Positions 5,890 to 36,718 of a stretch of DNA of 41,610 nt are shown piece by piece. The position numbers and the translations under genes were made by a program. How positions within the stretch are numbered: position 1 is the first letter of the stretch; each line of letters opens with the position of its first letter. A model generated the notes under the pieces. The model had not been told where the DNA came from, did not search any database, and worked only from the letters and a program-made list of their open reading frames with translations. The stretch is from a virus (taxonomy: Duplodnaviria > Heunggongvirae > Uroviricota > Caudoviricetes): IMG/VR virus record IMGVR_UViG_2537561977_000020; one strand, written 5' to 3'.

Positions 5890-6654
5890 TTAACGGGGTA
5901 ACTCTGGTGGAATATATCTGCCGATGCGGTCTTCTATGGTCGGCAGAATGCACATGCTGTCGTTAAAGCGGTCATGCAGTTTGTAGACCAGTTTCGAATC
6001 CATTTTTTCGAGAGCAGGCATTAACTGCGCTCGCCAGATTTCATTAATACGTCGGAAGTTATGACAGACGGCGCGGAGATTGTTGATGAACATTTCCTTT
6101 TCTGCGTCACTGATTCCGGTCTGTGCTTTCTGAATGCATTTCGTGCTGCCATTCCGGTAGAAGCGTTCCTGGGCAGCGACAGCCTCATCCACGGATGGAT
6201 AACACCCTACGTAAACGCTTTTCTCTCCGTTCCATGCGTAGGCTCTGTACGGGTTGTATTTGCTCTGGTGATGGTAAACCATCTTCGGCAGGCACTCCCT
6301 GTGCGGCGCCAGTATCGTGGAGGACTGCTGGTGCAGTTTGCGTTCGCATTCGATGAAGTATCGGCGTATCTGGCGACCTTTTTCGTTACGCTCGACCATC
6401 GCCAGTTCTTTGGCTGTATCGAGGGTGAGGTGGTAGTCCTTACAAAGAACATTTTTACGCTTTCCAGTTTTGGAAAGCGTTACGATATAATCCTGATTTT
6501 CAACGAATTTATAGTCTGCAATTCGTGATGTAATCCATGCTGCAAACACTTTCCCTACCCCAAGGAATGCGTGCAGATCGCGAGCATTGCAGAGCAGGGT
6601 GATTTCGTTGGCGATAGCGCCGTTGAAAACGGGGATGAGTTGAGCTGCCATCAC
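5890..6654 (-). CDS. antirepressor (AntA-like N-domain + KilA-C-like C-domain)
   Basis: N-terminal IPVFNGAIANEITLLCNARDLHAFLGVGKVFAAWITSRI; C-terminal ~145 aa nearly identical to ORF 10126..10899. Confidence 0.6.
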   Translation of the reverse strand: MMAAQLIPVFNGAIANEITLLCNARDLHAFLGVGKVFAAWITSRIADYKFVENQDYIVTLSKTGKRKNVLCKDYHLTLDTAKELAMVERNEKGRQIRRYFIECERKLHQQSSTILAPHRECLPKMVYHHQSKYNPYRAYAWNGEKSVYVGCYPSVDEAVAAQERFYRNGSTKCIQKAQTGISDAEKEMFINNLRAVCHNFRRINEIWRAQLMPALEKMDSKLVYKLHDRFNDSMCILPTIEDRIGRYIPPELPR

Positions 6655-7106: not shown

Positions 7107-7136
7107 AATATACCTATTGGTCATCGCGGATGTCAA
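7107..7136 (-). promoter_or_regulatory. sigma70-like promoter of antirepressor cassette 1
   Basis: Minus strand TTGACA (7136-7131), 18-bp spacer, TATATT (7112-7107); conserved copy at 11121..11150. Confidence 0.55.
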
Positions 7137-10059
7137 TCTTTCCGGTATCTGTAAGATTCGAATCCTCCGGCGTTTAGTGGAATGCTCGTGGCCCAGTCAG
7201 GAACGGTTGCCAGTAACTGGCTGACATGTTCTGCTGAGTAATCGGGTGAGTCAGGGGCCTCACTTATAATTTCATCGTGTACCGTCAGCACAATGCTGTA
7301 ACCGGCATCTTCGATAAGCGGCATGTTTCCGGCCAGAACGTCGCGGGCGGCCGCCTGGGTGACGTTCTCCACCAGCTTTCCGCCGTAGGTTTTGAGTCGT
7401 TGCCATTTACGCGAATAAGAGTTAACACCCATATAGGTGATATTCCCTTTTTCGATAACCGGAGACGGGTAGCATACAGCGCGTCCGGATGGTAGCTGTA
7501 TGCGCAGCCACGCGCCATCGCGGCGGATTTTAAGATAACCGCAATACAATGTTTTTTGCGGTGTGGCGATTGCAGTGCGGACGGTGCGCTCCAGTTCGTA
7601 CCAGAAATCGCAGGTCGCCGGGTGCGCCCTGCGCCAGAGACGTTTAAGTGAGTCGCAGGCGATAAATACCCGTTCAGAAAGGCCGTAGGTTGACTTACGT
7701 TTAACCGATTCGTAGTACCAGCTTTTCGCCTCGCGGATAACATCGCGGGGAATGTTTGGCAGTGCGGCGTTCGCCAGCTCGTCGAGATCGAGACTGTAAA
7801 CCAGTGCAAAAGTGATGAAGGCCGACACACCACCACCGTACCCGCAGTTGTGAACGATTAAATGTCCTGAGTCGGTTTTAATCGTGAATCTGTTTCGAGG
7901 CCCCGCATGTGCAATGTCGTAAACATCGCTCCAGCTCGTCGATACGTTTTTGCAGGTCTGCGATTTTTCTTCTGTTGCGGTTATTGTCTGCTTTGGAGAC
8001 GAACTGGATATTACCCGGTTCGTAGCCTTTGTTATTGTCGATGCGATCCATTTCCAACTTTGGGTCATTAAACCCTTTGATTTCCCTGACGTGTAGCAAA
8101 AAAGCTCTTTTATCTTCCTGCCATAGCTGACAAACGTAGATCCCCCGACCGCCGTAGTTGTGAAACAACCTGTTGGTGGGTTTATGGCAACGGCTGATTG
8201 CGGCAGACAATCGGTTAAGTAGCCTGCGACGGGTTTCGTCATCTGCAATAGCATCCGCATAGCATAAGAATTTTTTACGATACTCGTTATGCTTTTTCTT
8301 TGCGCAAATGTTACATCGGGTACTTTTTCCTTTAAGGAGATTGCTGATTGTTGCGGTGTGAGGCATTGCACCACATTTGCATTTGACAAGTATCCTTCGG
8401 TCTTTTCCGGGTACTTTTTCCAGTTCTTTGATAACGGTAAGTTCTCCGAAGCAAGTTCCAGGCTTTGGTGAAGCGTATTTTTGTTTAAAGCGATAAGGTT
8501 TGCCAGCTTCCATCCAGTAGGGGTTAGCACCTGGTGATCCGGGGTCATTTTTGCTCCGTCCAGTGATATTAAGGCTTTGTACCCCCTGTAAATCAGTCCT
8601 TCGTGTTTTACCCATTCTTCTCCGTCCCATAACAAATCCGCGCCCGAAATACTAACAAGCGGCTTATAGCCTTTATCGGTGAGCACTAAAGTATCCGGAG
8701 CTATGCAAGCCAATTCCAGCACTTTACCTATCTGGCGCTGGTCTTTGGTGACGCGCTCAACTTCAATTCCGTAAGCTTTTGCATACGCCAGTTTATATAA
8801 GTCCGGACCCGCTCCGGCGTCGTACTCTCTGAATGCATTCAGTTTCCATTCTTCTCCCGCCAGCCATGCCAGCATACGGCCTTCAATGTTCGACAAGTCA
8901 CTTACCACCAGTTTTTACCTGTTGGCGCGATAATGCAGCCACGTAACGCTGAACTGGTTAGTTCCATGATATTGTCAAACAGCAGGTCTGCACATCCGGC
9001 TTTCAGTGCTTCGATGCCTTCGTCTATTTGTTCCTGTTTTAGTGAAGGGCGGGGAAGATTCTGGGGCTGGAATAGCCGTCCGGCCCAGCGCCCGGTACGT
9101 GACGCCCCGCAGAACTGTAGCGTACCGCGTAAGCGCCCGTCGTGGCTTACGCCTTTCATCAGTGCCTTGTATTTACTGGTGCTGGTAGTACTGGCTTGCT
9201 GGCGGATAGCCAGCAGTTCTTTCACGGCAGATGGTAAATCGGGGTCGGCTATACGACGTTCCAGGGTACTGCGTTGCATGTCTGGTAGCTCCACACCGTA
9301 GGATTCAACGATGTGCTTAATCAACGCGTCCCGTTGTGTGGCTGCCTGCACTTCGCCATCAGTCATTTCCTGTGTACGCTTTGCCAGGCGCTTTTGCTCC
9401 TGGTCTACCGCTTCGATCGCAGCGCGCGCGAGTTGAATGTCCATGCAGACGCCCCGGTCGTTGATCTGCTGATCACGATGCCAGAGCGCCAGTTCTGTCC
9501 CCTGATAATTCCACTTCGGCAGACGTTTATAGACTTCGCGCATTGCCTCGATATCCAGCCCGGCGTAAGCAACAAAGCGCCGCCATTCTTCCGGGTGGGT
9601 TTTACTGGTGGCCCGACGCAGTTTGCTGTTTTTCGGGCGTGGCTTACAGAACAGCTGGATCAGCGCTTTACCTTCTTTGTCCTTCGCTTTGTCTTGCGGG
9701 ACGCCGAGTATTTCGCAGAGTTCCCCCAGAGACCCCGGGAGGCCGTGCGCCAGCGCCTGCACCATTGTGTCGCGCCAACGTTCGACTGGCGGTGCCAGTC
9801 GCGGCATTGCATAACGCAGGACGGTGCGGTCGAAGTGAGAGTTATGAAAATAAAGCAGGGTCTCAGGGGCTGCGATTGCTTCGTATAAGCCGTGTGGAAT
9901 ACCACCACCGGCAGTGATATCCCACACGTTTACGGGCCCGTCGTTGATAGCCCATGCGAACAGCATCACTTCAACGCCTTCGGCATACGCATGGGTACCG
10001 TTCGTAATAGGGATTTCGCAATAGGTTTCCAGGTCGCCCCATAGAATGTTTTCAGACAA
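7133..10059 (-). CDS. family A DNA polymerase (3'-5' exo + pol), frame-broken and intein-containing
   Basis: Exo motifs [33 protein letters not shown]; pol motifs [26 protein letters not shown] (motif A), [10 protein letters not shown]|CGYGGG (motif B split), LTVHDEI (motif C). Two track ORFs (8902..10059, 7133..8908) joined by -1 shift at T5 run 8912-8916. TTG start 10059 with GGAGGA upstream. Confidence 0.7.
7847..8707 (-). mobile_element. intein inserted in DNA polymerase motif B
   Basis: Begins Cys after KVLELA (CIAPDTLVL...), block B TPDHQVLT, ends ...HLIVHN followed by +1 Cys (CGYGGG); 287 codons. Confidence 0.6.
7878..8630 (-). CDS. HNH homing endonuclease ORF nested in the intein, different frame from Hint blocks
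   Basis: [12 protein letters not shown]...[28 protein letters not shown] plus Cys-rich N-region (CKCG...RCNIC); recognisable domain from about 8513 (MEAGKPYRF); frame is -1 relative to intein splicing blocks. Confidence 0.55.
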   Translation of the reverse strand: MGRRRMGKTRRTDLQGVQSLNITGRSKNDPGSPGANPYWMEAGKPYRFKQKYASPKPGTCFGELTVIKELEKVPGKDRRILVKCKCGAMPHTATISNLLKGKSTRCNICAKKKHNEYRKKFLCYADAIADDETRRRLLNRLSAAISRCHKPTNRLFHNYGGRGIYVCQLWQEDKRAFLLHVREIKGFNDPKLEMDRIDNNKGYEPGNIQFVSKADNNRNRRKIADLQKRIDELERCLRHCTCGASKQIHD

Positions 10060-10125: not shown

Positions 10126-10899
10126 TTAACGAGGTAAAGTGGGTGGAATATATCTGCCGATGCGGTCTTCTATGGTCGGCAGAGCACACATGCTGTCGCT
10201 GAAGCGATCATGCAACTGGTAAACCAGTTTCGAATCCATTTTTTCGAGGGCAGGCATTAACTGCGAGCGCCAGATTTCATTGATGCGCCGGAAGTTATGA
10301 CAGATGGCGCGGAGATTGTTGATGAACATTTCCTTCTCTGCGTCATTGATTGCTGTCTGCACTTTCTGAATACGCTTTGTGCTGCCGTTCCGGTAAAAGT
10401 CCTTCTGCGCAGCGACAGCCTCATCCACGGTTGGATAGCACCCGACGTAAACGTTCTTCTCTCCGTTCCATGCGTAGGCTCTGTACGGGTTGTATTTGCT
10501 ACTGTGGTGGTAAACCATTTTCGGCAGACACTCCCTGTGCGGCGCCAGTACCGTGGAGGACTGCGGAATAGCGGTTTCTTTCTCTATAAGATCAAGCACC
10601 CAACGGCGAAATTCTTTTGCTACTGGCGTTGTTGCGAACATCGCTACCAGGTGAGCACCGCGTAGAGAGAAAATGCGGTTATTCATTTGGACGGAGCCGG
10701 TTTTCCTAACGACCGTCAATTTGACGGTCGTTGTCATTTCAACTGAAAACTCATCCCGATTACGGTCATAAATACGAGCGACTGAGTCCGTTCGTGAGTA
10801 TTCCAGCGCGGTCGCCAGAGTGGCAGCGGTGAACCAAGATTTGCCGTTATGTTCGATCGTTTCGAGAATGTGGGATTTGAATACGAGTTGGGTACTCAT
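10126..10899 (-). CDS. Bro-N/KilA-C type antirepressor-like protein
   Basis: Probable start MSTQLVFKSH at 10899 (track ORF extends to 11064 through the leader); Bro-N-like N-domain; C-terminal domain paralogous to 5890..6654. Confidence 0.55.
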   Translation of the reverse strand: MSTQLVFKSHILETIEHNGKSWFTAATLATALEYSRTDSVARIYDRNRDEFSVEMTTTVKLTVVRKTGSVQMNNRIFSLRGAHLVAMFATTPVAKEFRRWVLDLIEKETAIPQSSTVLAPHRECLPKMVYHHSSKYNPYRAYAWNGEKNVYVGCYPTVDEAVAAQKDFYRNGSTKRIQKVQTAINDAEKEMFINNLRAICHNFRRINEIWRSQLMPALEKMDSKLVYQLHDRFSDSMCALPTIEDRIGRYIPPTLPR

Positions 10900-10937
10900 G
10901 GTTTTATGCCCTAGTAGATATTTTGAATTTACCCTTT

Positions 10938-11016
10938 TTGAGAGGGTGGTCGGGCGCTCAAAACCGCTACTAGTCGGCGGGCGTATTTCCCTTCGGAAGG
11001 GTGTTGTATTAGCCGC
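10938..11016 (-). promoter_or_regulatory. structured leader element, cassette 2
   Basis: GGTCGGGCG (10938-10946) / CGCCCGACC (11008-11016) enclosing 61 nt with CCCUUCGGAAGGG hairpin; arms covary with cassette 1. Confidence 0.45.
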
Positions 11017-11120
11017 ACGCCCGACCATTGAATTCTCAATATCATGGACATAAAAAATCCGCATGACTGACGGGCGCGGTTTCCGCTAGTAGAAAAGGTG
11101 TTTTGAGCACCATGAAGCGG

Positions 11121-11150
11121 AATATACCCATTGGTTATCGCGGATGTCAA
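11121..11150 (-). promoter_or_regulatory. sigma70-like promoter of antirepressor cassette 2
   Basis: Minus strand TTGACA (11150-11145), 18-bp spacer, TATATT (11126-11121). Confidence 0.55.
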
Positions 11151-11184
11151 TGTATGCTTTTGCAAAAGGTTGTCATCCCCTTTG

Positions 11185-11210
11185 CAAAAACACCCGGCGT
11201 GTAACCGGGC
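11185..11210 (-). terminator. intrinsic terminator after SSB gene
   Basis: Minus-strand hairpin CCCGG-UUACACG-CCGGG then UGUUUUUG. Confidence 0.5.
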
Positions 11211-11225
11211 GTCTATGAAGAAGGG

Positions 11226-11773
11226 TTAAATTAGTGCTTCAGCATCAGCACTTTCGCTGATATCGTCGAAATCGTCAGCGCTTGCCACTCCGCCGCCAGC
11301 GAATGCATCGCCGTCTCGCAGGAACTGGACTCCGCCGAGTGAGGCATTAATGCGTTTACCGAAATTATTGTCCTGTGCCCAGATATCGATAACGGCGTTT
11401 ACATAGCACCCTGCATAGGGACGTCCATCAGCCTGAATTAGTGGCGAACGATCGCGATCAAGAACAGCTGGGCGCGCTTTGTTAGCAGCGTTCAGGAAGA
11501 AATTGCCGGGAAAGCCTTCATACTCTGCTTTTTCATCACCATCATGCAGGCACAGATTGAGTTTTTCTCCAGCTGGTTATAAATGGACTCCAACTTCTCC
11601 CCCCATTTTTCCTTCGCTACCTGCTTCATAGCTTTACGGATTTCTTCCAGTTGTGGGTGTTTGGGAGACATTAAAAATACTGCGGAGAAACGCGGATCGC
11701 CTTCGCCGTTTACAGTTTTAGCTTCAAACAGAGCAGGAAAAGCTAATCTCACGTTATTTAATTTAATCTTCAT
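11226..11773 (-). CDS. DUF2815-type phage single-strand DNA-binding protein, frame-broken
   Basis: N-terminus MKIKLNNVRLAFPALFEAK; continues in -1 frame after T5 run 11562-11566 as LCLHDGDEKAEYEGFPGNFF...ending 11226; track shows only 11492..11773. Confidence 0.6.
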
Positions 11774-12285
11774 TTCAAAACTCCTATAAATTCTATGGAT
11801 TCTTTTTCCGCTGCTTTACGCGCAATTACAGCTTCCGCTACGGAATTAAATAGACCTAAATGTTTTTCTTTGCCGTGCAGCTTTATATAAGCTCTCCACT
11901 TATTACGGTGACGGCAAACCCCAACGGCACCGCTTTTATTATCAGAGCGTAAGGATTGGTTAATGTTATTTTCGGTAGAGGTTACAAGTCGTAGATTAGA
12001 AAGGGTGTAATTGCTCCGATTTTTGTCTATGTGATCTACCTCTAATCCCGAGGGGATACTACCGTTATGCATAACCCAGACGATGCGATGTAACAACATT
12101 TTCCGACCGTTTACACTTACGTGATAATACCCGTCCGGCCTTATATGTCCCGCTTGCTTATCTGCATATTTAGCATTCCAGGACAAATAGTCTCGCCGGG
12201 TTTTAAAATGGGTGAGCGGACGATATTTCCATATTAAAACGCCATTGTGATACCGGAAGCATTCATTTAAATATTCTTGATCCAA
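11770..12285 (-). CDS. HNH homing endonuclease (HNH + AP2-like DNA-binding domain)
   Basis: EVDHIDKNRSNYTLSNLRLVTSTEN and SGAVGVCRHRNKWRAYIKLHGKEKHLGLF. Confidence 0.65.
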   Translation of the reverse strand: MDQEYLNECFRYHNGVLIWKYRPLTHFKTRRDYLSWNAKYADKQAGHIRPDGYYHVSVNGRKMLLHRIVWVMHNGSIPSGLEVDHIDKNRSNYTLSNLRLVTSTENNINQSLRSDNKSGAVGVCRHRNKWRAYIKLHGKEKHLGLFNSVAEAVIARKAAEKESIEFIGVLK

Positions 12286-12299
12286 ATAACCTCCTTAAA

Positions 12300-13601
12300 T
12301 CAGATGAGGTCTGCGGTTAGCGTATCGTCGGATACGTCGTCGAAATCATTTACAGGGTTGATATTGAGTGCGGGGTGTGGGTCTGACTCGGGAACGACGG
12401 TGGGTTTACCATCAGCTCGTGTTATCAGTGCCTCGACTTTTGACCAACGGCGCGGACTGGCCTTTTTGATAAGTTTTTCGGCTTTTGTGGGACTAATAAG
12501 TTTAAAGTCGAATACTTCTTCAGTTTTGTACCTGAACTGGTCCTTCAGAAGTGCGCGAGCTGCCTCTTCATCACTCCAGGCCCGGTTACCTTGTTTTCCT
12601 GTTACCAGTTTAAACCCCGGTACCGGATGTCCGGCATTGAGTTCATTGTGAACCCGGTCCCGTACTGCCTTTAGCCAGGATTCAATAAAGTCGGCCTGAC
12701 TATAGATCTCCGCAAGCTGCTCAATGGTTAACAGAGGTACACGTGCGCTGGCATTGGTGATTATTTCGCTGACAGGCTTTGTCAGATCTTCAAAATCGCT
12801 GGCCGCTGTTTGTAAATGCTGCATTTTCTGGGCAGTGCAAATAGCTTTTGCTTTACAGAAGCGGCACTGTTTTTCTCCAGGTATGAAGTTTTCCAGCGGT
12901 AGTGTCTCAATGCCTTCGCATTCAGCAATATTGAGAACAAGGATCGCACTGGTTGCGGCCTCCAGCGCCCGTTCACCGAAAGACTGAAGTTCCTGTACGG
13001 TTAACGACCATTCTGAAACGTGGTTGAGCCTTGGCTGGTGAATAAATAATCTTACAGTTTCAAAGTCATACAGCATGCTGAATTGTTCAAGCGCACCCAG
13101 AGCATATAGTTGTAGTTGCTCATTTTGTTCTGCATCAATGCGGACGCCTTTGCCATATTTCAGGTCGTGGATTTGTAATTCGTTACCAGCGATGATTATG
13201 CCGTCGGCAGTTCCGAAAGATTCTTCCACCCCCGTTATATGTGAGAAATCAACACGTTGTTCAACCAATAGTTCATTATTCTGTGCAAGAGTCCAGACCG
13301 TATCAACATACCGGCCAACGGCTTCGACCATTTCATCATCCACCTGTGGGCCAGATGTATCATCAGGATTTTCGCGAAGGGGGTATGAGCCGAGAAACAT
13401 AGAAACATTGCATCCGGCGTAGTGTTCCGGGTGGCTTTGCCTGTTTCGTAGAACTTTTTCAGCAAGTGCGTGCGCTGCAGTGCCCTCGATTGCAAAAGTT
13501 GTTTCTTTATCCGGTTGTGTGGCCTCCAGCGCCAGACTACCCGCACACCTTAGCCAACGATGTGCAGATGATGGTGATAATCGTGCATGAACATCAGGCA
13601 T
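12300..13601 (-). CDS. DUF2800-type PD-(D/E)XK nuclease
   Basis: N-terminal [16 protein letters not shown] and C-terminal Cys cluster [10 protein letters not shown], recalled for DUF2800 proteins that accompany DUF2815 and PolA in phage replication modules. Confidence 0.6.
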
Positions 13602-14112
13602 TCATGACCTCCTGAATGTGTTTTCGCCGCGCAGCCGCTGCGAGTTGTTTGGTGGGGAAATGACCGAGAGATTTGAATTTGCCGTTTACTCGTCCGTAGG
13701 CCTGCCACGGTTTTTTCTTACCTTCGCTGAACCGAACGCCAACCACTCCAGATTTATTTTTTCTGGTGTGAGAGTTAGCCCTGTTTTGTGAAAGAGAGGC
13801 CCAGCGAAGATTTACCGCCCGGTTGTCATCTCGACGACCGTTAATGTGGTCAACTTCAGGGGCAGATCCGGGAATAAATGCTGCGGCAACGAGACGGTGT
13901 ATTTTGACGGTTACCTTTTTACCCGCTTTCCATAAGTCGGTGATTAGATATCCGTCTGTGTCATAGCGTGGTTTTAGTGACTTACCTTTAATGGGATAGG
14001 TGCAGCCAGAACCTTTGTTTAATACAGTTCTGTCGAGGCTTCTCAGGTTGCCAGCGTCTGAAATCTGGTAAATGCCTTCAAAGCCTGAAATATCCTTCCA
14101 GGCTTCCGGCAT
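13594..14112 (-). CDS. HNH homing endonuclease (NUMOD4 + HNH + AP2-like)
   Basis: [79 protein letters not shown]. Confidence 0.65.
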
Positions 14113-14114
14113 GA

Positions 14115-15017
14115 TTAACCCTCCAGTGCTTTTTCAGCCAGGGTGATTACTTCAGCGAGATTTTCATCCGTTACTTCACCAAGTTTCCTGGCTCCCTGTT
14201 TTTCCAGAATTGCAATAGCTTCTGCCCGGTAGCCCCCTTTTGCTAACTGGAGGATCAACCCTTCAGCTTGTTTGCGTAGTGCCGCGAAATCAATTGTATG
14301 GTCATCTTTGGCGTCATTATTCTGGCTGGAATTTGCTGCGTCTCTGCGTGCAAATTCTTCCTGCAGCTGAAGGTACTCAACACGGTTGATCTCGATATGG
14401 CCTTTTTTCAGCATCTCGTTCAACTTGCGTAAGGTGTGGAGTTCACTGGCTGCTGTGCCGGATACATTTTTGACGTAAAACGGCCCCGTGCGTTCTCCAT
14501 CTTTGTTACTGGCCTTTTTCGGTTTAACTTCATCACGCCCATCCGCAGGTGCATCAAGTAGCTGCTCGGCAAAAGCACGTCGCTCGCCGATGGTTGGCAG
14601 GTCGTCCCAGAACTTAAGGATGTTACGGGACAGGTCCAGGAGAGCAGGTTTAAGCAGCGCCCTGGCTCGTTTGACGCCCTGTAATGCGCTGTCGAGAGCA
14701 TCAATCTGAACTACTCGTTTATCGCCTTCAGCATCACGGTAGGCAACAGCACGTTGCAGCATGTCTTCTGTGATAGGGGTGGCTACCGGGTAGAAACCAG
14801 CCAGTGCGATAACGTCGCTGAACTCCAGATCATCCAGTGTCATTGCCGCTGACATGTTTTCAGCTTCAGTTGCTGTATCCCGACATTCCTGCACTCGTGA
14901 AATCGTGTCAGGATGCATAACAATACCTGATGCCATTGTGCGGATAAGACGTTCAAGCAGCGCATTATGTTGTGCCAGAAGTTGATTATTAAGTTCTAGA
15001 CTGGTTTCTAAACTCAT
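14115..15017 (-). CDS. hypothetical protein (300 aa)
   Basis: Long ORF tightly packed in operon; no family recognised. Confidence 0.4.
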   Translation of the reverse strand: MSLETSLELNNQLLAQHNALLERLIRTMASGIVMHPDTISRVQECRDTATEAENMSAAMTLDDLEFSDVIALAGFYPVATPITEDMLQRAVAYRDAEGDKRVVQIDALDSALQGVKRARALLKPALLDLSRNILKFWDDLPTIGERRAFAEQLLDAPADGRDEVKPKKASNKDGERTGPFYVKNVSGTAASELHTLRKLNEMLKKGHIEINRVEYLQLQEEFARRDAANSSQNNDAKDDHTIDFAALRKQAEGLILQLAKGGYRAEAIAILEKQGARKLGEVTDENLAEVITLAEKALEG

Positions 15018-15196
15018 ACTGTGGTCCTCGCTACAAGGAGAATGAAAGTGATGATCAGACCGAGCGCAGTGGCAACGGCCAGACCGGTCATCAAATCGAA
15101 GTTTTTACGGCGATAACGGAGAACATCGCGCCCCGTCAGTCGATGGAGGTATTCAGGTTTCATCGGTTGTATTCCTTTTTTCATATCGGGGAGCAC
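15014..15196 (-). CDS. small hypothetical membrane protein
   Basis: 60-aa ORF with hydrophobic C-terminal segment LAVATALGLIITFILLV; first ORF after PL-side terminator. Confidence 0.3.
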   Translation of the reverse strand: MLPDMKKGIQPMKPEYLHRLTGRDVLRYRRKNFDLMTGLAVATALGLIITFILLVARTTV

Positions 15197-15222
15197 GCTG
15201 TTGCGAGTGCGCTTTCAGACAT

Positions 15223-15248
15223 AAAAAAGCCCGTCACTTGCGGCGGGC
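15223..15248 (-). terminator. intrinsic terminator (tL-like) upstream of early-left genes
   Basis: Minus-strand hairpin GCCCG-CCGCAAGUGA-CGGGC then U6. Confidence 0.5.
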
Positions 15249-15322
15249 AAAGACTACACACAGCAATTACATGGATATCATCGAGTGCCTGCTTTTAACC
15301 ACATCAGGCGAGGTGGTTCTCC

Positions 15323-15370
15323 TTGTACCCCTACAGTGAGAAATCGTCTAATATCTCTTCACCCCTACAG
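15323..15370 (+). promoter_or_regulatory. putative promoter with direct-repeat sites upstream of ORF 15388
   Basis: TTGTAC (15323-28), 18 bp, TCTAAT (15347-52); exact 10-mer ACCCCTACAG at 15327-15336 and 15361-15370; inverted repeat around RBS. Confidence 0.35.
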
Positions 15371-15387
15371 TTTGAGAGAGATTAGAT

Positions 15388-15957
15388 ATGTCTGAAGAAA
15401 AAGGAATTCTTTCCCGGATAACTGAATCGTTATCCGGCGTGGGAGGAGCAATTAAAGGCGCGGTTGGAGCAGCAAGAGAGATTCAGAATCTGACTGTCGA
15501 CTATGCAGTTAAAGAGAAGACGCACACCTTACTCGATAAGTTAATGGATGTTCAGATGCAGCAAATGTCGCTTCAGGAGCTGCTGATTGCGGCTAAGGAG
15601 AAAATTGTTGAACTGGAAAATGAGAAAGTAAAGCAAGAGAACTGGGCCGCTGAAGCGGCGAGCTATGAACTTTACCAGCCTATGCGGGGTACTCTGGTCT
15701 ATCGCAGCAAGCTTTCTGCAGATGCTGACCAATCTCCGGTTTATATTTGTCCCAATTGCTACGAGCAAAAGAGAAAATCTATATTGCAAGCGGAAGGTCT
15801 GGTTACTAAGCCAGGCCTTGAGCGAGCCGTTAATATGGTTTGTTCGCACTGTAGGGCTTCCTATCTGTTCAACCGAAATGCTTTAGAGGCCCGACTGCCT
15901 TCTGAAGATGAAAATCCGGGGAAGGCAATCACGGATTACGATCCTTACAACCAGTAA
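15388..15957 (+). CDS. hypothetical protein with Gly-rich N-terminus, coiled coil and C-terminal zinc ribbon
   Basis: 189 aa; CPNC...CSHC Cys pairs; ATG 15388 with GAGAGAG upstream; convergent with PL transcription. Confidence 0.5.
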   Translation: MSEEKGILSRITESLSGVGGAIKGAVGAAREIQNLTVDYAVKEKTHTLLDKLMDVQMQQMSLQELLIAAKEKIVELENEKVKQENWAAEAASYELYQPMRGTLVYRSKLSADADQSPVYICPNCYEQKRKSILQAEGLVTKPGLERAVNMVCSHCRASYLFNRNALEARLPSEDENPGKAITDYDPYNQ

Positions 15958-16171
15958 TTTCTTTAAGCATGGGTACCCTTCCGGCCACCCAGAGTTAAAG
16001 GAACTAAGCGCCCCATCGTCGGGGCGTTTCAACTTGCGTGACTTATCAGTTCGTCGCGGTGTTGTCCTCTACGCTTACCGTACGCATACGGACTCGGCGC
16101 TTACCTCGATCCCATCGGGTGCCATTTCATTTTGCCAGGAGTACTGCGGCTTACCTGTCACGCGGTTCAGT

Positions 16172-16184: not shown

Positions 16185-16201
16185 ATTACTTATTGCGATT
16201 A

Positions 16202-17298: not shown

Positions 17299-19445
17299 AT
17301 GTCTGATAACAAACCATGGGGAGCTACGCCCGATGAGTGGTTCCACTTCGATCTGGTGTTGGGGATGACAGACAGGCTTTTACCTGTGGTGTCCAATCCC
17401 TGTGCAGAACTGTCGCCTAATAGCAAGCTTTCTCATAATTTTGGCAAAACTCCCTGTCGCTACAATGGCCAACGTAAGGTTGTTGGTATCCCCGACTGGG
17501 CTAACTATGTTGTTACGGAAAACGATTTTGCCCGGTGGTCGAACGAACCCGATTACGGTATTTGCGTTCGTACTGGCGACGGGGTGGTGGCTCTGGACTG
17601 CGATATCAATGACGCCGGGATGCAGGAGATCGTACGCAATATTATCCTGTCATGCCTGGGGGAACTTCCGCCACGTCGCTGGCGGGCTGACAGTCATAAA
17701 TGCCTGTACCTGATTGCTGTTGATGGCGACTACCGTAAACGTGGTCACCGCCTGGAAGGCGAAAATAAACAAATAGAGCTGCTCGCTAAGGGCCAGCAGT
17801 TTGTGGCTTGTGGTACCCATCCGGCAGGCGAACGTATTCAGTGGGACTGCGGTTTGCCCGGCGAACCTCTGAAAATTACATCTGAACAGCTCGAAAGCCT
17901 GTGGCAGCGCCTGGCGGATAACTTACCCGTGAAAGACAGCTATACCGCAGGTGCGGGACGTCAGCGTGACCTTTCCTGTGTCGATCCTTCCGCGACAGAT
18001 GATGTCGCCGACTGGCTTGACGCGAACGGGTGGACTCTGTCGGTCAGCTCTGATGGTTCCCGCAATCTGAAACCGTTTCGGGATGAGTCAGAATACAGCA
18101 ACGGTTGCAGCGAAACATCCATTAAGTATTTCCCAAAAGGGACGGGGGGATTTGAACAGGGACATTTTAAAAGCATGCACAACACCGATGCGGGGCTTAC
18201 TGATGCCGACTGGCTGGAAGGCTACGGCTATACGCAATCTCTGTTCGAAGATCTCACGGTGGCTGAAGATGGCGATAAGCCTGAATTTACCGATATTAAT
18301 ACAGATATGACAGCCCATTTTCTGGAACGCTTTATCTACGTCATCGAGGGTGACCAGGTATGTGATCTTAGCCGACCGCCATATCAGTGCATGATGGATA
18401 TGAAGTCGTTCAAAAACCTGATGGCGCCTTACCAGTTCCCGCCAGAAGGGAAAGGGCAACCAGTCCCCGCAACCAAACGGTGGATAGAGCACCGGCATAA
18501 GAAGATTGCTGAGACGACAGGCTATAAGCCCGGTGCGGGACGTATTATCGAGCGTTTCGACGGGCGGTTTGAAATAAACGAATTTTATATGCCTGAGCAT
18601 CCACGTACAGCGGATACAAGTAAGGTGTCCACGTTCCTTAATCATATGGCGTATCTGGTACCTGATGCCTGGCAGCGCGAGTTTTTCATCGCCCGTCTGG
18701 GATGGATGGTTCAGCGTCCGGAGCGTCGATGCCCGATTTCTATTCTGCATGTGGCTACCGCACATGGTACGGGCAGAGGATGGGTCAGCCAGTTAATGGA
18801 GCGCGTGCTCGGCCCGTGGAACTGTGCTCGTACTCGCATGAAGATCCTGTGCGATAACCAGTTCCATGACTATCTGTACAATACGCTTCTATGCACCATT
18901 GACGAGGTGCGCGAAAACGATAAGCGGTATGAGGTGAACGATAAGATCCGTGACGTGCTGACAGAACCACGGTTTGAAGTGAACCGCAAATATGGCAGCA
19001 AAAAACGATGGATATATACACCGGCTTTCTGTTCTACACCAACCACTTTGATGCGCTGGCGCTGCCAGAGGAAGACCGACGTATAGCTGTGCTGGGGGGC
19101 CCTGACTTCGCCGCAACTGAAGAGCATTACGCCAGCCTGTACGGTGCGCTAAGCGACAGCGACTTTATCGCCCAGGTGTACTGGTATCTGATGGGCGTTG
19201 ACCTGTCTCGCTTTAACTGGCAGCGCGCCCCCGAGACGAAAGAACGCCTTCTGATGATTGAAAGCAATAAGAGCGATGTGGAGGCTGCTCTTACTGAAAT
19301 CCTGGATAATCCGCCTGTACCAGCAATGACTTATCAACAAATTGTTAACGCAATACTGGCAGAAGCAGGAATGGATGTAGAAATTAACCAGAAGCACATA
19401 ACAAAGCTATTGCGAGAAAAACAAAAAGGCAGCCAACAGATTTAG
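17299..19445 (+). CDS. prim-pol type DNA primase with D5-like C-terminal region, frame-broken
   Basis: Prim-pol motifs VVALDCDIND and ELLAKGQQFVACGTHP; track ORFs 17299..19086 and 19008..19445 joined by -1 shift at A6 run 19000-19005. Confidence 0.55.
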
Positions 19446-19564: not shown

Positions 19565-19825
19565 GGTAACAGTAAGGTAACAGTAAAACGACTAACTGTT
19601 ACCTTGAAAATATCAATAAATTCACATGGATAACTAAAAAGGTAACAGGTAACAGTAGTATTTAGTTTATATACGCGAGACTTTATATTATACGTACTAT
19701 ACCTGCGCATACGTATATAGAACTAAAAGTAACTGTTACCTGTTACCCAAAACGGGGTTAAGCCTTATGTGGCGCTCCCTACAGGAGGTAACAGTTAGCT
19801 ATTTATCTGTTACCTTACTGTTACT
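19565..19825. repeat. iteron array flanking AT-rich core (putative replication origin or regulator-binding array)
   Basis: GGTAACAG at 19565, 19576, 19641, 19648, 19787; inverted CTGTTACC at 19596, 19733, 19740, 19807 (+ partial 19819); AT-rich core 19660-19725 with ATACGTAT palindrome. Confidence 0.55.
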
Positions 19826-27034: not shown

Positions 27035-28379
27035 TTATTACCGAAATGCTGGCGTTTGACCGGGCATCGGTAAGGCAGTTCGATAAAGTCGGTCGCCTCC
27101 AGATTGAGCGCAGTAATCTCAGCAAGGCGAACGTCTGCGGTTATTTCGGGTATGAAATACCGGGGGCGGAAGCGCTGGGACTCGACCCCAAAAAACTTTA
27201 TCAGCTTTACCGTGACCCCGATGAACTGCGCAAGGCAGTTTCAACCTTCAACAATATTCCCGTCCTGTGCCGACACAAACCCGATTATCCGGGCGCGCCC
27301 GCGCGCGAGTACCGGGTGGGGACGACTCATGCCAACAGCGAGTTTGACGGTACCTATCTGGTTAACGGCATGTCCATCTGGGACAACTCCGCCATCGCGG
27401 GGATAGAAACGGATGAACAACGGGAAATCTCATCGTCATATGCCTATGTGGCAGATATGACGCCGGGAACCACCCCCGACGGTGAGCCGTATGACGGCGT
27501 TATGCGGAATATCGTGGGAAATCATGTGGCCCTGGTCGGCGATGGCCGGGTAGGGTCGGACTGTCTTGTTATGGACTCTCTCCCTCAGGAGCTAAAACGC
27601 ATGAAACTGAGTAAAAAGAAGTGGCGGTGCTTACCGCGCTGGGAACCTATCTTGCGCCGCGTCTGGCGCAGGATGCGGCTCCCGGGGATTTGTTACGCCT
27701 GATGGCGCAGTATAAGCGTCCGGCAGCTATCGCCAGCGCGGTAAAAACTGCTTACAGCGAACGGCTGGCACAGGATATGGATATTGAACCGGCGGAGCTG
27801 GCGCAACTGATGGAATCAGCAGAAGCCGTACCGGAGCTGGTCGGGGATGATGATACCGGGTTAACTGACGAGTCGAAGGCATTTGATACCGACAGCCCGA
27901 TGGAAAGTGTACTGGCGTTGCTGTCCGGCAAAGTTCCTGATGATGTGCTGGAAAAAATTAAATCCGCACTGTCTCCGACAACCGACGAAGCCCCCGAAAC
28001 AAAAGAGGCTGATGTGAAACCCGACGATGTGAAAGTCGATAAACCTGCGATGGATGCAGCAATCAGGCTGGCAACTGACCAGGCAACGAAACGGGCTGCT
28101 GAAAATTTCCGCGCCGTCCGTGTGGCTGAAGCTGAAGTGCGACCGCTGATTGGCGATGTGGTGGCGATGGACTGCGCCGAAGATGTTTACCGTACCGCGC
28201 TGGAACAGACGGGGATCGATATTCAGGGTATTCACCCCGGTGCGTACCGCAGCATGGTGAAGTTTGCCGTTGAGCAGAAGCAGACGGCCAAATCCTCTCC
28301 CCGTGTGGCGATGGATCAGGCCAGCGCATCGACGTTTGCGGCAGATTTCCCCGGTGCAAAACTGAAACGAGGTTACTGA
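27031..28379 (+). CDS. head protease/scaffold-like protein (Mu gpI/DUF2213-like), possibly frame-broken
   Basis: N-part [11 protein letters not shown]...[12 protein letters not shown]; acidic scaffold-like C-part begins at GTG 27621 in -1 frame; A5 run 27613-27617 at junction. Confidence 0.45.
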
Positions 28380-28863: not shown

Positions 28864-29893
28864 TGAATAAATTTAAACAGCATTATGCGACGGCAAGTCG
28901 CGACTACGGGATTATTCTTCCCGGAGCACAGGCTTATTTGCCGAAGGAGTACGCCGCCGATTACGGACTGGCGATGGACGCGCAGCCTGCGCTGGTCACA
29001 GCGGCTAACAGCGGTATCCCTGCGTATTTCACCAATTACGTTGAGCCAGAACTGATCCGCGTGCTGGTGACGCCGATGAAAGCCGCTCAGATTCTGGGCG
29101 AAACCAAAAAAGGTGACTGGACGACACTGTCGGCACAATTCCCGATTGCAGAATCTGACGGGGAGGTGAGTTCCTACGGGGATTACAGCAACAACGGGGT
29201 GGTAAGCGCAAATGTCAACTGGGTACCGCGCCAGAGCTATCACTTCCAGACCTTCACCGTATGGGGCGAACGTGAGCTGGAGATGTACGGCGCAGCCCGT
29301 ATTGGCTGGGCGGCAGAGCTGAACGTGGCGTCAGCACTGACGCTGAATAAGTTCCAGAATAAGTCCTATTTCTACGGTATTGCCGGACTGACGAACTACG
29401 GTTTGCTGAATGATCCGTCGTTATCTGCACCAATCACCCCGGATACCGTTGACGGTAAACTGAAGTGGGACGACAAGGACGGACAGGGCGTGTATGACGA
29501 TATCGTGAAACTCTTTAAGCAACTGGTGAAACAGACTAACGGTCATATTGAGCGTACCGACAAAATGAAACTGTGCATGTCGCCGCTGGCAGAGGTGAAC
29601 CTCACCAAAACAAACCAGTACAGGGTTAACGTGTCCGATCTGCTGGCGAAAAATTTCCCGGCGATGACCATTGAAACGGCGGTGGAATACACCTCTGACG
29701 CTGGCGAGCTGGTACAGCTTATCGCGGAGCGTCTGGGTGAACAGGATACAGGCTATTGCGCTTTCACTGAAAAAATGCGCGCCCATGCGGTAGTGGCAGA
29801 TACGTCTTCCTGGAAACAAGAAAAAATCCGCTGGTACCGTGGGGGGCGATTATTCGCCAGCCGCCGGCGTATGCACAAATGCTGGGGGTGTGA
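28863..29893 (+). CDS. major capsid protein (Mu gpT-like), frame-broken near C-terminus
   Basis: Track ORF ends in basic junk after A6 run 29821-29826; -1 frame gives ...[17 protein letters not shown] ending 4 nt before next ATG. Confidence 0.55.
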
Positions 29894-29896: not shown

Positions 29897-30243
29897 ATGG
29901 CTGAAATGGTAACAGTGGGCTGCAAACTGCCGAACGGTCTGGTGCTGGAAGTGGGTCAGAAACGGGTTCAGGTGGCAGGCTGGCGGAATAACGCGGTTAA
30001 AATTGTGGGGGGCTATGGTCTGACGCAGGTCGATAAGGTGTTTTTGACGCCTGGCTGGCGGAGCACGGACAGCAACCTTATGTGAAAAATGGCGTTATTT
30101 TTGCGCAGGATAAGGCGAACAGTGCAGTCTCGCAGGCTACGGAGCAGAAAGCCGTTAAATCCGGCCTTGAACCGCTGCCGCAGAAAAATCCGGCTCCGGG
30201 CGTTAACCGCAATGATGAAGTGATGGGTAAACCTCAGGAGTAA
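29897..30243 (+). CDS. hypothetical head/neck protein, frame-broken
   Basis: Track ORF 29897..30085 continues in -1 frame after T5 run 30041-30045 to TAA 30241-30243. Confidence 0.4.
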
Positions 30244-30707: not shown

Positions 30708-31280
30708 AGTCACAGGTGGCAAACAGTTCCGGCAGAAGCTGAAACAGGTTGCCGCGAACCTTTCATTGGGTAAAAACTCAAAGTGGGTTTTCTTGAGGGA
30801 GCAACTTACCCTGACGGTACGTCAGTGGCTTATATTGCCGCAGTTCAGGAGTTTGGTGGAAGAGCGGTCATACCTGCCCGTGAGCAGACGCTCCACTTTC
30901 GCTATAACGAAAAAACGGGAGAAACCGGGCACCGCTTTGTCAAAGCCGGTAAAGGGAATTTTGTTCAGGATGTGGTTATTCCTGAGCACACGGTCACCAT
31001 TCCCCCCCGTCCGTTCTTCCGTAAGATGATCGAACATAAAAGTCCCGAATGGGGCGAAAAAATGGCGACCTTATTACGGGCGAATGATTTTGATACTGCG
31101 ACCGCTCTGGTGTGTATGGGAGAACATATCAAAGGGCAGTTGCAGATGTCTGTTCGCGACTGGGAAAGTCCGCCCAACGCTGCATCCACTGCCCGGCAAA
31201 AGGGTTTTAACAACCCGCTTATTGAAACCGGACATATGATGGACAGCGTTGATTATTCTGTAGACGGGGGCAAAAAATGA
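30697..31280 (+). CDS. HK97 gp10-like head-tail joining protein, frame-broken
   Basis: ATG 30697 after GGGAGGGG; N-part [22 protein letters not shown], -1 shift at A5 run 30772-30776, then track ORF 30783..31280 ([12 protein letters not shown]...AAVQEFGG). Confidence 0.5.
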
Positions 31281-31643: not shown

Positions 31644-32154
31644 CCCTCTCCGTTACGGAAAGCGCTCTTTATCAGGCCCTCGGTGATTATCTCCGGGGGC
31701 TTTTTTCTGATGCCGGGATTGAACGAACGCAGCAGAACCAGGTCCCGATGCCTCAGGGGAATTTCATCACCATGACGGGCATTGATGTTACCGGATTATC
31801 CACTGCGGTAGTGGCATATTCTGCGCCAGCGCAGGCTGGTGAGGGCTCTCAGCATATCACCCGTACCACAAAATGGCGTTGCCAGCTTGATTTCTACGGC
31901 CCTCACGCGGCAGATAACGCGCAGGTGCTGGCTAACGCTTTTCCGGTCTGAATTTTCCGTACGGCTTTTCCGGCAGGGCGGTGGGCTGATTTCCCCGCTG
32001 TATTGCTCAGAGCCCTTTAACACCACATTCCCCAACGGTCAGCAACAGTATGAACCGCGCTGGACGCTTGATATTCAGATGCAGATTAACCCTGTGGTCA
32101 CAACTTCCCTGATGTTTTTTGACAACGTGATCACCCGGACAACGGAGGCTGATA

Positions 32155-32174: not shown

Positions 32175-33639
<1,465 letters not shown>

Positions 33640-34714: not shown

Positions 34715-36718
34715 TGAGCTTGTTCTGTCCCTCGGGATTGATGACAGGGACTTTACTGCCGGGGAACAGGCAGTACATGCTGCCCTTAACCGGCTCACGA
34801 CGGTGATGGAAGGTGTCGCTGACACATTCAGTCAGGGACAGAAGAAAACCAGTGAATCACTGGAAAAAACCGGAAAAGATGCTGATAAAACGGCCCGTCG
34901 AATGGAAGATGCCGGGAAACGGGCGTCCCGTTTTTTTTCAGGGATCCGTAGCGAGATTCTGGCTCTTGCGGGTGTCAGTCTGACGCTGGGGGGGCTGAAG
35001 AACCTGGTAACAGGTTTTGCCCGTGATCTGAACCGTCTGTCCGTGGAATCTGATGCTTTTGGCATGAAGGCCAGAAATCTGGACGGATGGTTACGGGCTG
35101 CGCGGGCAAATAATGTTGATGAAGGGGAAATGTCTGGGGCATTTTCCCGGCTTGCAAATGCAAAAGCGGCCTTCAGAGCCGGAAGGTCCTTTGATCCTGT
35201 GTTACAGGATTTGTTTCAGGTTGCAGCCAGGGCGGGCATTAGTGTTGATTTAAATACTGACAGCACTGAAGCCATCATGCGCAAGCTGGCGGTTATTTTT
35301 CCGCGACTGACAAAGTCCGAACAAACTGCCTACGGCAACGCGCTGGGCTTCAGTTATGCCGGACAGCAGTTTCTTGGCTCCGGTCATGCGCTGAAAGATG
35401 TGGACGAATTTACTTCCCGTTCGCAGGTTACGCCGGGGCGTATAGCGCTGGCCCGTAAGCTACGAAAAGAGCTTGTTGAGCTCGATCAGACCTGGTCCGG
35501 CATCGGGATGACGATTAGCACCGCGTTGATGCCGTACGCGCTGAAGCTCAGCCACTGGCTGGAGACACTCGGTGACTGGATGCAGCAACATCCGGAGGAA
35601 GTGAACAGGTTTATCACCACATTTCTGAATGACGTTGAGTCAGTGGCCTCCCTGGCGAATAAGGCTGCCGGAGAACTGGGGGGCTGGCAGAATGTCATTA
35701 TTACGCTGATCGGGCTGAAAGTGGCGTCATGGGTGCGGGGGTTGACAAAAGCCCTCAGTGGCCCCGGAGGCCTTCTTTTTGCGATAACGGCGCTTTACCC
35801 GGTTGTTGACGGATTACTGACATCCATTGTTGGCAGGGAAAATAAGGACTGGCTGGATTCACATGGTTTTTTCTGGGCTTCAGACGGGACTTTCTTTTTC
35901 AATAAGAAAGAGATGGAGACGTATCAGACAAAACTGGATGCCGGAGAAAAGCCTGGCAACATCACCCGGGCACAATCACCCACAGTATGGCAGCAGGGCA
36001 TGCTGGATACTCAGGCTTCTCAGGCAACCGGGAGGGAAGCAGCCTTCGGTGAATCCTGGCTACAGGGTATGCGTGCGACGCAGGAAAAACTCGGTAATGC
36101 CATGCAAAACCGCCAGCGACCGACGAAGACCGGGGAAGCCCTGTTAGGCTGGCTGCAACCGAAACTGTCTCAACTGGAGGAAAAATATAACCTGCCGCCC
36201 GGACTGCTGCGCAGCGTTGCGATCACCGAATCCCGTGGTAATCAGTTTGCCGTCTCACCTGCTGGTGCGATGGGACTGTTTCAGTTCATGCCGAAGACGG
36301 CCAGTGAATTTGGTCTGAGGGGGAACGATGCCTTTGATCCCGAAAAAGCCGCTGATGCCGCCGCGAGAAAACTTGGTGGCCTGATACGTTTTTTCATGGC
36401 GATCTGGCTAAGGCTCTGGCGGCATATAACTGGGGAGAGGGAAATGTTCAGCGTAAGGGACTGGCTGCTGCTCCGGAGGAGACCCGCAACTATATTCCGC
36501 GGGTGCTGGCGAACCTGCCTTATCCGGGTGCGGCAATGGCCATACGGTCGCGCCATCCTGCGCCTGTATCGCAGTCCACCGTAACGGAAACCACGCATAT
36601 CGGGACACTGAATGTCACCACAACGTCGGACAATGTGAAGGGTATTACCGATGACGCACGTCGGCGTATCACGAATTCGGCGCTTGTGTCGGTTTATTCC
36701 AGCGGGGTAACAGGATGA
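34698..36718 (+). CDS. tail tape measure protein with C-terminal lytic transglycosylase (SLT) domain, frame-broken
   Basis: SLT motifs ITESRGNQFAVSPAGAMGLFQFMP and (after -1 shift at T6 run 36389-36394) ALAAYNWGEGNV; track ORFs 34698..36584 and 36503..36718. Confidence 0.6.

Follow-up and report, generated by a model that had tools for sequence, protein, structure and literature searches.

We have analysed the apparent frame change in the family-A DNA polymerase gene of a prophage, carried on a stretch of 41,610 nucleotides (the window). The five-base run at this frame change is very probably a sequencing error in the draft assembly of Escherichia coli LT-68, and the polymerase gene is then really intact. 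The window is 100% identical to ADUP01000034.1 of this draft (GCA_000188815.2), in which the run at 8912-8916 has the positions 281624-281628. The run is private to the draft of LT-68; in all else the sister prophage is identical, and one-base indels are in excess throughout the window. As for the sequencing platform, and for the error being carried by the reads rather than by the cells, we infer both.

In this explanation, the coding strand of the real prophage would carry A6, its polymerase gene would be a single continuous one, and the LT-68 reads would systematically mis-measure homopolymer length, as in flow-based (pyrosequencing-type) chemistry. The same artefact would shorten or lengthen 14 further positions in the window, falsely breaking about 11 genes. 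The frame change would accordingly have no biological meaning, and we consider its value to be that of a warning. The GenBank entries EFZ58766.1 (a 385-aa "polymerase") and EFZ58768.1 are, in all probability, artefactual fragments, and apparent frameshifts, pseudogenes and recoding candidates from the LT-68 assembly should be discounted unless a sister genome confirms them. The real biology near the frame change is an intein in the polymerase, within which an HNH-like gene is nested out of frame. The coordinates of all features are given in Table 1.

Table 1. Features of the polymerase locus and private one-base indels in the window
Feature	Position	Strand	Basis
A5 run, true length very probably 6	8912..8916	-	Sequence; relatives with six bases or in-frame AAA AAG
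Family-A DNA polymerase gene of the prophage	7133..10059	-	Repair, alignment, PF00476
N-terminal fragment ORF, very probably artefactual, 385 aa, ending ...APTGKNWW and stop, deposited as EFZ58766.1	8902..10059	-
C-terminal fragment ORF, very probably artefactual, 591 aa from GTG; motif A, intein, motifs B and C	7133..8908	-
Intein, 287 aa, in polymerase motif B (...KVLELA/CIAPDTLVL...HLIVHN/CGYGGG...)	7847..8707	-
Nested 250-aa ORF, +2 frame within the intein; HNH-like homing-endonuclease candidate	7878..8630	-
T5, sister T6; breaks DUF2815/Enc34 ssDNA-binding gene	11562..11566
A6, sister A7; breaks DUF5906 primase gene	19000..19005
A5, sister A6; second break in DUF5906 primase gene	19417..19421
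A5, sister A6; just downstream of the primase gene	19636..19640
A5, sister A6; breaks DUF2213 head protein gene	27613..27617
Major capsid gene, two one-base "echo" insertions: ACA[A]GAAAAAA (about 29819), CC[G]TGGGGGG (29839)	29819..29839
T5, sister T6; breaks 115-aa structural gene	30041..30045
A5, sister A6; breaks 194-aa structural gene	30772..30776
T5, sister T4; breaks 121-aa structural gene	31482..31486
Extra T, GGC[T]AACG; breaks neck/tail-terminator gene	31933..31933
A3, sister A4; breaks DUF3383 sheath-like gene	32518..32520
T5, sister T4; second break in DUF3383 gene	33065..33069
T6, sister T7; breaks 673-aa SLT-domain (tape-measure-like) gene	36389..36394

The polymerase junction in LT-68 and its relatives

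The run is T5 on the plus strand and A5 on the coding (minus) strand. The minus strand reads ...GCG CCA ACA GGT AAA AAC TGG TGG TAA, with the stop codon at 8904..8902, and the C-terminal ORF opens in the -1 frame with GTG GTA AGT GAC TTG TCG AAC ATT GAA GGC CGT. A preliminary description of the sequence had reported a polymerase split by a -1 frame change at a T5/A5 run, and we found its coordinates and frames to be exact. Its proposal that one extra A rejoins the polymerase also held, motif A included. When one base is restored to the run, a continuous 975-aa precursor is obtained, in which the extein has 688 aa and the intein 287 aa. The precursor is collinear with intact 687-aa orthologues except for the in-frame intein. 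This repaired protein is found exactly in other isolates (P0152, 9 contigs), also in a 944-aa form (WP_250114703.1). It has all three family A motifs, A (DxSxIExR), B (R...K...G..YG) and C (HDE); motif B is split by the intein before CGYGGG, and motif C lies in TVHDEII. PF00476 scored 32.1 bits on the C-terminal fragment product, just below the cut-off of 34.3, and is recorded without qualification on the full-length polymerase product.

The 89-nt junction is present in 157 complete E. coli genomes. None of them has the five-base run, and all have either six bases or an in-frame AAA AAG; these junctions align over 90 nt, with an identity below 99% in every one. Relatives read GGT AAA AAA CTG, GGC AAA AAG CTG or GGC AAA AAA CTA, so that the junction varies synonymously and Gly-Lys-Lys-Leu is in frame every time. 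The exact 48-mer with T5 had no match in 185,579 GTDB species-representative genomes, which shows its rarity only. Comparison with the orthologues of related prophages, as the preliminary description had suggested, revealed no intact orthologue with the same run, against the slippage site that it had allowed for. It revealed no broken orthologue with this run either, which argues against an inherited pseudogene, also less favoured there.

The sister contigs L016 to L019 each have six bases at the polymerase run. When the sister prophage L016 (GCA_012768515.1) was compared with window positions 1-20055, we found 0 substitutions and 5 one-base deletions in the window, all in A/T runs (6 to 5 four times and 7 to 6 once). 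Substitutions were still 0 when the comparison was extended by 2 kb of chromosomal genes. In L018 and L019, which are short contigs from other read sets, the polymerase run is the sole difference from the window.

One-base indels across the window

In total, 15 private one-base indels are present window-wide, and 13 of these lie in genes which relatives have intact. About 11 prophage genes are broken, and the density is about one indel per 2.5 kb. By comparison, the first 20 kb have 0 substitutions and the following 18 kb have 9. All 9 substitutions, together with 13 genuine indels, come from the comparison of window positions 18385-37855 with contig L024; the indel count leaves out 37843, since this apparent 16th indel is an alignment-edge effect beside an IS110 insertion in L024. 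A G4 run at 3487 was also set aside, since it is private relative to L006 and L008 but common to the sister L016, and is thus a real polymorphism. True 6-mers are under-called at about 11%. Each echo insertion in the major capsid gene is an additional copy of the base that makes up the neighbouring 6-mer, placed one position away. Such an echo insertion is a carry-forward or incomplete-extension artefact of flow sequencing and not a product of replication slippage.

In kind, these indels are the same as the homopolymer-length consensus errors of flow-based or long-read drafts. They are changes of one base, plus or minus, in A/T runs (and one G run) of 4-7; many sites in one region frameshift otherwise intact genes; and they are missing from sister genomes that are identical elsewhere, with echo insertions beside long runs. 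Only their density and their being the majority state in the reads are unusual here.

The preliminary description had called the run probably a consensus error. On the one hand, the error itself is supported by the private run and by the 14 further private indels. On the other hand, its placing at the consensus stage is not. An independent k-mer reassembly from the LT-68 reads (L013, Logan SRR040460) matches window positions 11058-21773 at 100% identity and repeats the indels at 11566, 19005, 19421 and 19640. Because these four other indels are repeated, the error would sit in the bulk of the reads rather than in consensus polishing. Most LT-68 reads thus carry the shortened runs, which a real mutation would produce too. 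A reassembled LT-68 contig across 8912-8916 was sought via the nested ORF and the Ant gene, and this search returned only the NCBI contig and unrelated samples; the truncated product EFZ58766.1 is known from a single contig. A literature search for the LT-68 sequencing platform or accession numbers gave nothing usable.

Other public read sets contain the same truncated DUF2815 product. They have homopolymer indels in large number, and two of the sets show 0 substitutions. We considered the truncated DUF2815 in these Logan read sets as a real allele and rejected it, as the contigs are riddled with homopolymer indels. The combination of zero substitutions and several run-length changes relative to a sister is a criterion that also reveals the artefact in other read sets.

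Genuine deletion and programmed recoding as improbable alternatives

Alternatively, replication slippage in an A6 run could truly have inactivated the LT-68 polymerase, and the prophage would be a decaying, pseudogene-laden remnant. We consider this improbable. The four shortened runs repeated by the independent assembly of the same reads are compatible with it, and real decay does occur in this prophage family, where the polymerase gene has a nonsense change (TGG to TAG) in L015 and, in L002, one additional T inside the intein. In addition, LT-68 is a member of the enteroinvasive E. coli, a group in which genes tend to decay. However, a genuine deletion would need 15 one-base indels to have accumulated while the first 20 kb gained 0 substitutions and the remainder no more than 9, next to a sister with full identity even in the chromosomal genes beside the prophage. 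In natural sister pairs the ratio is reversed: between L016 and L017, which are independent sister assemblies, there are 5 substitutions and no indels; the private changes of L006 are 1 indel and 33 substitutions, and those of L008 are 2 and 86, respectively (gap placements inside homopolymers were merged by hand for L006 and L008). Moreover, the window has no larger deletions or IS insertions, unlike the relatives, which have several; some of its insertions are not slippage products; and the artefact pattern is seen again in unrelated, error-prone read sets.

Programmed recoding, in which slippage at the A5 run, either of the ribosome (a -1 frameshift) or in transcription, would yield the full-length polymerase, possibly as regulation, is far less probable still. 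The arrangement does recall such a site, since a few bases are shared by both ORFs, the second of them is in the -1 frame, the point where they meet has an A-run and, three codons on, the zero frame reaches its stop. The meeting of two -1-related ORFs at an A-rich run is shared with dnaX-type -1 frameshifting, in which A AAA AAG follows a Shine-Dalgarno-like element and precedes a hairpin. Here, in contrast, the heptamer U AAA AAC departs from the slippery pattern X XXY YYZ, and the P-site tRNA-Lys would have to re-pair on UAA. A search for a stimulatory RNA structure in the 92 nt downstream gave a minimum free energy of -18 kcal/mol, the mean of the shuffles being -19.8 (z = +0.70), and 149 of the 200 shuffles folded as well, so that this stretch folds no better than shuffled sequence. 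The site is also not conserved, as the orthologues are all in frame, including an allele otherwise identical at the protein level. Efficient transcriptional slippage needs about 8-9 A, and a run of five is far too short for it. About 10 further genes in the window have similar frame changes, and no recoding context surrounds the runs concerned. We therefore regard real recoding at U AAA AAC as effectively excluded.

The motif-B intein and its nested reading frame

An intein that holds a nested out-of-frame ORF interrupts the C-terminal part of the polymerase and was missing from the preliminary description. The intein is rare: about 4 of the 159 complete-genome E. coli orthologues have it and about 155 lack it, the intein-free motif-B target alleles being of the type ...AAAGTGATGGAACTGGGG/CTGGGCTATGGC.... 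The class 1 splicing residues are present, namely C1 in CIAPD..., TPDH (TxxH) in block B, and ...IVHN/C with a +1 Cys. The splicing blocks are conserved among intein homologues, the insertion is absent at motif B of intein-free orthologues, and a co-conversion footprint is found. The pLDDT values are 72-88 for residues 1-92 and 257-288 of the AF2 model, and in a Foldseek search with this model the top 36 PDB matches were all inteins (probability up to 1.00, rmsd 2-3 Å, E-values only to 5e-3). Judging from this model, the intein adopts the Hint fold. TIGR01445 matched the intein only at E = 0.02, below its cut-off. Considering that the splicing residues are intact and that the protein is the sole polymerase of inducible relatives, we predict that the intein is active in splicing.

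The nested ORF is deposited as EFZ58765.1 ("hypothetical"), has 163 homologues and probably starts at a conserved ATG at 8615..8613. The start, GA[A TG]G, lies in the intein's own conserved Gly-Glu-Glu-Trp codons, which also supply a Shine-Dalgarno-like GGAG in three of four elements. In four divergent elements, the intein has 0 stops in the polymerase frame and 17-30 in the +1 frame, and the +2 frame is open for 234-257 codons. L010, L011 and L012 show the same frame arrangement with a strongly conserved nested ORF. In the centre of the intein, conservation is in the +2 frame, and the polymerase frame is open but unconserved and unstructured. The pLDDT profiles of the two products are complementary, and the nested product was modelled with pLDDT 90-98 over residues of about 50-240. 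We considered that an in-frame HNH domain had been displaced by two compensating frameshifts and rejected this, because elements with an intein identity of only about 33% have in common the +2 arrangement, a stop that belongs to the nested ORF, and the start position.

The nested ORF strongly matched HNH families of PHROG (phrog_374 at 4.7e-37) and an EndoVII PHROG only weakly. The Pfam and NCBIfam HNH models gave no match to it, and PDB searches with the nested product, by sequence and by fold, gave no significant match. Its invariant motif D195-R196-x-D has Arg in place of the His of HNH_3. We lean towards the view that the intein is a maintained dual-coding element, in which the +2 frame encodes a conserved HNH-like protein and the polymerase frame is only kept free of stops, and which would extend the out-of-frame homing-endonuclease inteins to enterobacterial phages. 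In this case, more than 150 Salmonella Jerseyvirus genomes would be included, in which the intein is annotated as splicing-only, and an endonuclease family without the canonical catalytic His would be involved.

Out-of-frame homing-endonuclease inteins are a kind first described in 2025 and already reported in 2025-2026. To go by its title, a 2026 preprint reportedly deals with a cyanobacterial dnaX intein with an out-of-frame homing endonuclease. Inteins of actinobacteriophages with an EndoVII-like endonuclease "in frame 3" have been described (bioRxiv 10.1101/2025.01.02.630785). As in those inteins, the endonuclease ORF lies here on the same strand and in the third frame, the extein frame is open with an unstructured and unconserved centre, and the nested product folds confidently. 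On the other hand, the product is PHROG 374 HNH-like with a zinc ribbon here and EndoVII-like there, and here the extein is motif B of a family-A polymerase and the hosts are Enterobacteria.

A homologous intein is annotated in gp37 of the Salmonella Jerseyvirus vB_SenS-Ent3 as "intein, encoding splicing domains". Both inteins lie inside a family-A polymerase gene, with the same splicing blocks and with homologous nested ORFs (about 49% identity) in the same +2 frame. They differ in that the element described here belongs to a temperate myovirus-like prophage of E. coli/Shigella and has 287 aa, whereas that of Ent3 belongs to a lytic siphovirus and has 299 aa.

Polymerase frame change and the run in orthologues

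The polymerase of the window is divided over two minus-strand ORFs, the second in the -1 frame of the first, next to a short homopolymer run (see table). Judging from the sequence comparisons, we consider this frame change a sequencing artefact and not a real feature. The coordinates and frames of the -1 change claimed in the preliminary description are as described there, and one base added to the run gives a 975-aa protein. Over its whole length, this repaired protein aligns with the polymerase of relatives, which is intact and has 687 aa; the exception is an in-frame stretch of 287 aa inserted into motif B. The exact repaired protein is also present in other isolates (P0152, 9 contigs; 944-aa form, WP_250114703.1).

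Among complete E. coli genomes, 159 match the 3-kb region, as do three induced phages. All four near-identical genomes have T6 at the run, and three of them have one intact 944-aa CDS; in the fourth, H3 (NZ_CM177011), the polymerase is broken elsewhere, by an additional T in the intein at the equivalent of about window 8389, and PGAP annotates it as a pseudogene. Another relative, from SRR30347329, has a TGG to TAG nonsense change at the equivalent of window 8865, and in both relatives the inactivation is apparently real. A probe of 89 nt, with the run at its centre, had matches in 157 complete E. coli genomes, with a 90-nt alignment in every hit listed; because the hits align over 90 nt and none reaches 99% identity, the five-base run is present in 0 of these 157 genomes. 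The exact T5 48-mer had zero matches in 185,579 species-representative genomes. At the junction, the relatives have GGT AAA AAA CTG, GGC AAA AAG CTG or GGC AAA AAA CTA, a synonymous variation of what is an ordinary in-frame Gly-Lys-Lys-Leu.

Features of the polymerase region and of the replication module in the window
Feature	Position	Strand and frame	Details	Accession
N-terminal polymerase ORF, 385 aa	8902..10059	minus	ends ATT ATC GCG CCA ACA GGT AAA AAC TGG TGG TAA	EFZ58766.1
Next ORF, 591 aa	7133..8908	minus, -1 frame	starts GTG GTA AGT GAC TTG TCG AAC ATT GAA GGC CGT ATG	
Homopolymer run T5	8912-8916	plus-strand reading		
Insertion, 287 aa	7847..8707	minus	polymerase motif B; ...KVLELA/CIAPDTLVL...TPDH...HLIVHN/CGYGGG...	
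Nested ORF, 250 aa	7878..8630	minus, +2 frame of intein	'hypothetical'	EFZ58765.1
Probable nested-ORF start, ATG	8613-8615	minus	GA[A TG]G; GTG in L010	
AntA-domain gene	5890-6654	minus	antirepressor-type paralogue	
Bro-N-domain gene	10126-11064	minus	antirepressor-type paralogue	
HNH_3 gene	11770-12285	minus	free-standing	
NUMOD4+HNH_3 gene	13594-14112	minus	free-standing	

One-base indels across the LT-68 assembly

By look-ups of exact sequences, the window is bases 272713-314322 of contig ADUP01000034.1 in the E. coli LT-68 assembly GCA_000188815.2. Compared with L006 and L008, the closest complete-genome prophages, the window has many isolated one-base indels within genes that are intact in those relatives. 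Over window 1-20055, comparison with the sister prophage L016 (GCA_012768515.1) gave 0 substitutions and five one-base deletions (8916, 11566, 19005, 19421 and 19640), all in A/T runs that are one base shorter in the window, and there were still 0 substitutions when 2 kb of chromosomal acpS, pdxJ and recO were included. Against the sister in an NCTC genome (L017), the window has the same five deletions and 5 substitutions, and the polymerase run was the sole difference from two short contigs of other read sets (L018 and L019). On the other hand, a comparison of L016 with L017, two independent sister assemblies, gave 5 substitutions and 0 indels. We regard this comparison with the sister prophages as decisive at the level of sequence.

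Over window 18385-37855, comparison with CP065611.1 gave 9 substitutions and ten indels beyond the three common with the L016 comparison; an eleventh apparent indel at 37843 was rejected as an alignment-edge effect. This brings the private one-base indels of the window to 15; they break the genes of the polymerase, DUF2815, primase (twice), DUF2213, major capsid (twice), three small structural proteins, the terminator, a sheath-like protein (twice) and a tape-measure-like protein. In terms of private changes, L006 and L008 have 1-2 indels against 33 and 86 substitutions, respectively. The consensus error that the preliminary description preferred is borne out by the absence of the five-base run from the probed genomes, by the private indels and by the substitution-free sister. 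Fourteen of the indels, at window 11562-36394, lie outside the polymerase run, and about ten other prophage genes are falsely broken.

A real and recent one-base deletion in the LT-68 prophage is very unlikely. Logan's independent reassembly of the LT-68 reads (SRR040460) is 100% identical to window 11058-21773 and reproduces four indels, indicating that the shortened runs at these other sites are the majority state in the reads and not a polishing product, as would also be the case with a real deletion. However, real deletion needs 15 indels with essentially no substitutions, several of them insertions of non-slippage type, in a window that has no larger lesions. Programmed recoding at the A5 run, including the slippage site of the preliminary description, is excluded for practical purposes, considering that no orthologue has the frame change, that U AAA AAC does not have the heptamer form X XXY YYZ, that the 92 nt downstream fold no better than shuffles (z = +0.70), and that about ten other genes have a 'frame change' of the same kind at ordinary runs. 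Five A are also too short for transcriptional slippage.

With regard to the consensus error, the shortening affects about 11% of the true 6-mers and hardly any of the shorter runs. The capsid-gene insertions, ACA[A]GAAAAAA and CC[G]TGGGGGG, are an extra copy of the adjacent 6-mer's base, one position off. In flow-based sequencing, incomplete extension and carry-forward make such displaced extra bases, and replication slippage does not. SRR040460 is an early SRA number, which would fit the pyrosequencing era.

The truncated 93-aa DUF2815 product is also given by several other public read sets. This was weighed as a caveat to the error reading and rejected, as the contigs carry 2-5 isolated homopolymer indels per 2-8 kb, almost all deletions, and two of them have 0 substitutions relative to a sequenced phage. 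At least eight unrelated public read sets (L034-L041; ERR7012635, ERR4562590, SRR18191554, SRR30170617, SRR15989181 and others) have A5 in place of the A6 run of DUF2815. All five of these contigs that were checked have other homopolymer indels, indicating a recurrent artefact at one 6-mer run, which produces a recurrent false 93-aa cluster in protein databases.

At window 30645, CCGGGGGG[G]CACC replaces the sister's CCGGGGGG[T]CACC; this substitution makes G6-T into G7 and is probably another run-length miscall, not a true SNP. In the lysis/antiterminator region (window 20824-22029), 57 clustered substitutions relative to L006 and L008 lie between flanks of >99% identity, and we read this segment as mosaic (recombinant) and not as error.

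The motif B intein and its nested reading frame

The 287-aa insertion, found in about 4 of the 159 complete-genome E. coli orthologues, has the hallmarks of an intein. In the predicted structure, both of its ends form a Hint domain; the 36 best PDB matches are inteins without exception. Immediately upstream, a stretch of 60 nt showed 63% identity to intein-free alleles, compared with 93-100% farther upstream and mostly 95-100% downstream; this drop is a co-conversion footprint. In some intein-containing prophages, the polymerase lies between the two antirepressor-type paralogues, whose C-terminal parts have about 476 nt in common, with about 89% identity in the window. The intein-free L003/L009 and L007 have unrelated genes at these positions, and RMDEC465 has the intein and no Ant gene.

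The nested ORF is a full-length member of a phage protein family of about 247 aa annotated as HNH endonucleases (phrog_374, 4.7e-37; 163 homologues, 40-66% identity). The same arrangement was found in two distant metagenomic family-A polymerases (L010 and L011), with inteins of only about 33% identity to that of the window, and in the Salmonella Jerseyvirus phage Ent3, where the annotation of the intein is 'encoding splicing domains'. The four elements agree in their stops: there are none in the polymerase frame and 17-30 in the third frame, and the +2 frame has an open stretch of 234-257 codons. Amino acids are conserved in the polymerase frame at the intein ends and in the +2 frame at the centre, where all that is maintained in the polymerase frame is the absence of stops. 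The predicted structures of the two frames are complementary, with pLDDT of 22-41 in the polymerase frame (residues 93-256) and 90-98 in the +2 frame (residues about 50-240).

A start codon at intein nucleotide 93, built from conserved Glu-Trp codons, is common to all four elements, and GGAG or GAGG from Gly-Glu codons precedes it in three of them, not in L011. In this way, the splicing block of the intein doubles as a probable translation-initiation site. The nested family has a four-Cys zinc ribbon, and its invariant motif is D-R-x-D, compared with D-H-x-D in HNH_3 domains. Although its model is very confident, the nested protein had no match in the PDB, either by sequence or by fold, and no Pfam HNH match. 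Considering this motif and the lack of Pfam and PDB recognition, its nuclease activity is something that we infer.

According to its title, a 2026 preprint reportedly describes the same architecture in a cyanobacterial dnaX intein. For actinobacteriophages, a 2025 paper reported inteins that encode a homing endonuclease in 'frame 3' (10.1101/2025.01.02.630785). A phage methylase with an HNH hidden out of frame is a related case (PMC11855218). The actinobacteriophage intein has the same architecture as that of the window, where the out-of-frame ORF is predicted to be homing-endonuclease-like. The intein of the window with its nested ORF is thus a further, new example of a kind that has been recognised only recently.

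Other endonuclease genes and the window end

Together with the nested ORF, the two free-standing HNH genes give the replication module three homing-endonuclease-like genes. The stretch of about 13.6-14.1 kb that holds the NUMOD4+HNH_3 gene is missing from L006, the closest complete-genome relative, which suggests a mobile endonuclease insertion. Window position 41610 is the end of ADUP01000034.1 (314,322 nt), inside the prophage tail region; accordingly, it is the assembly that cuts the prophage short, not biology.
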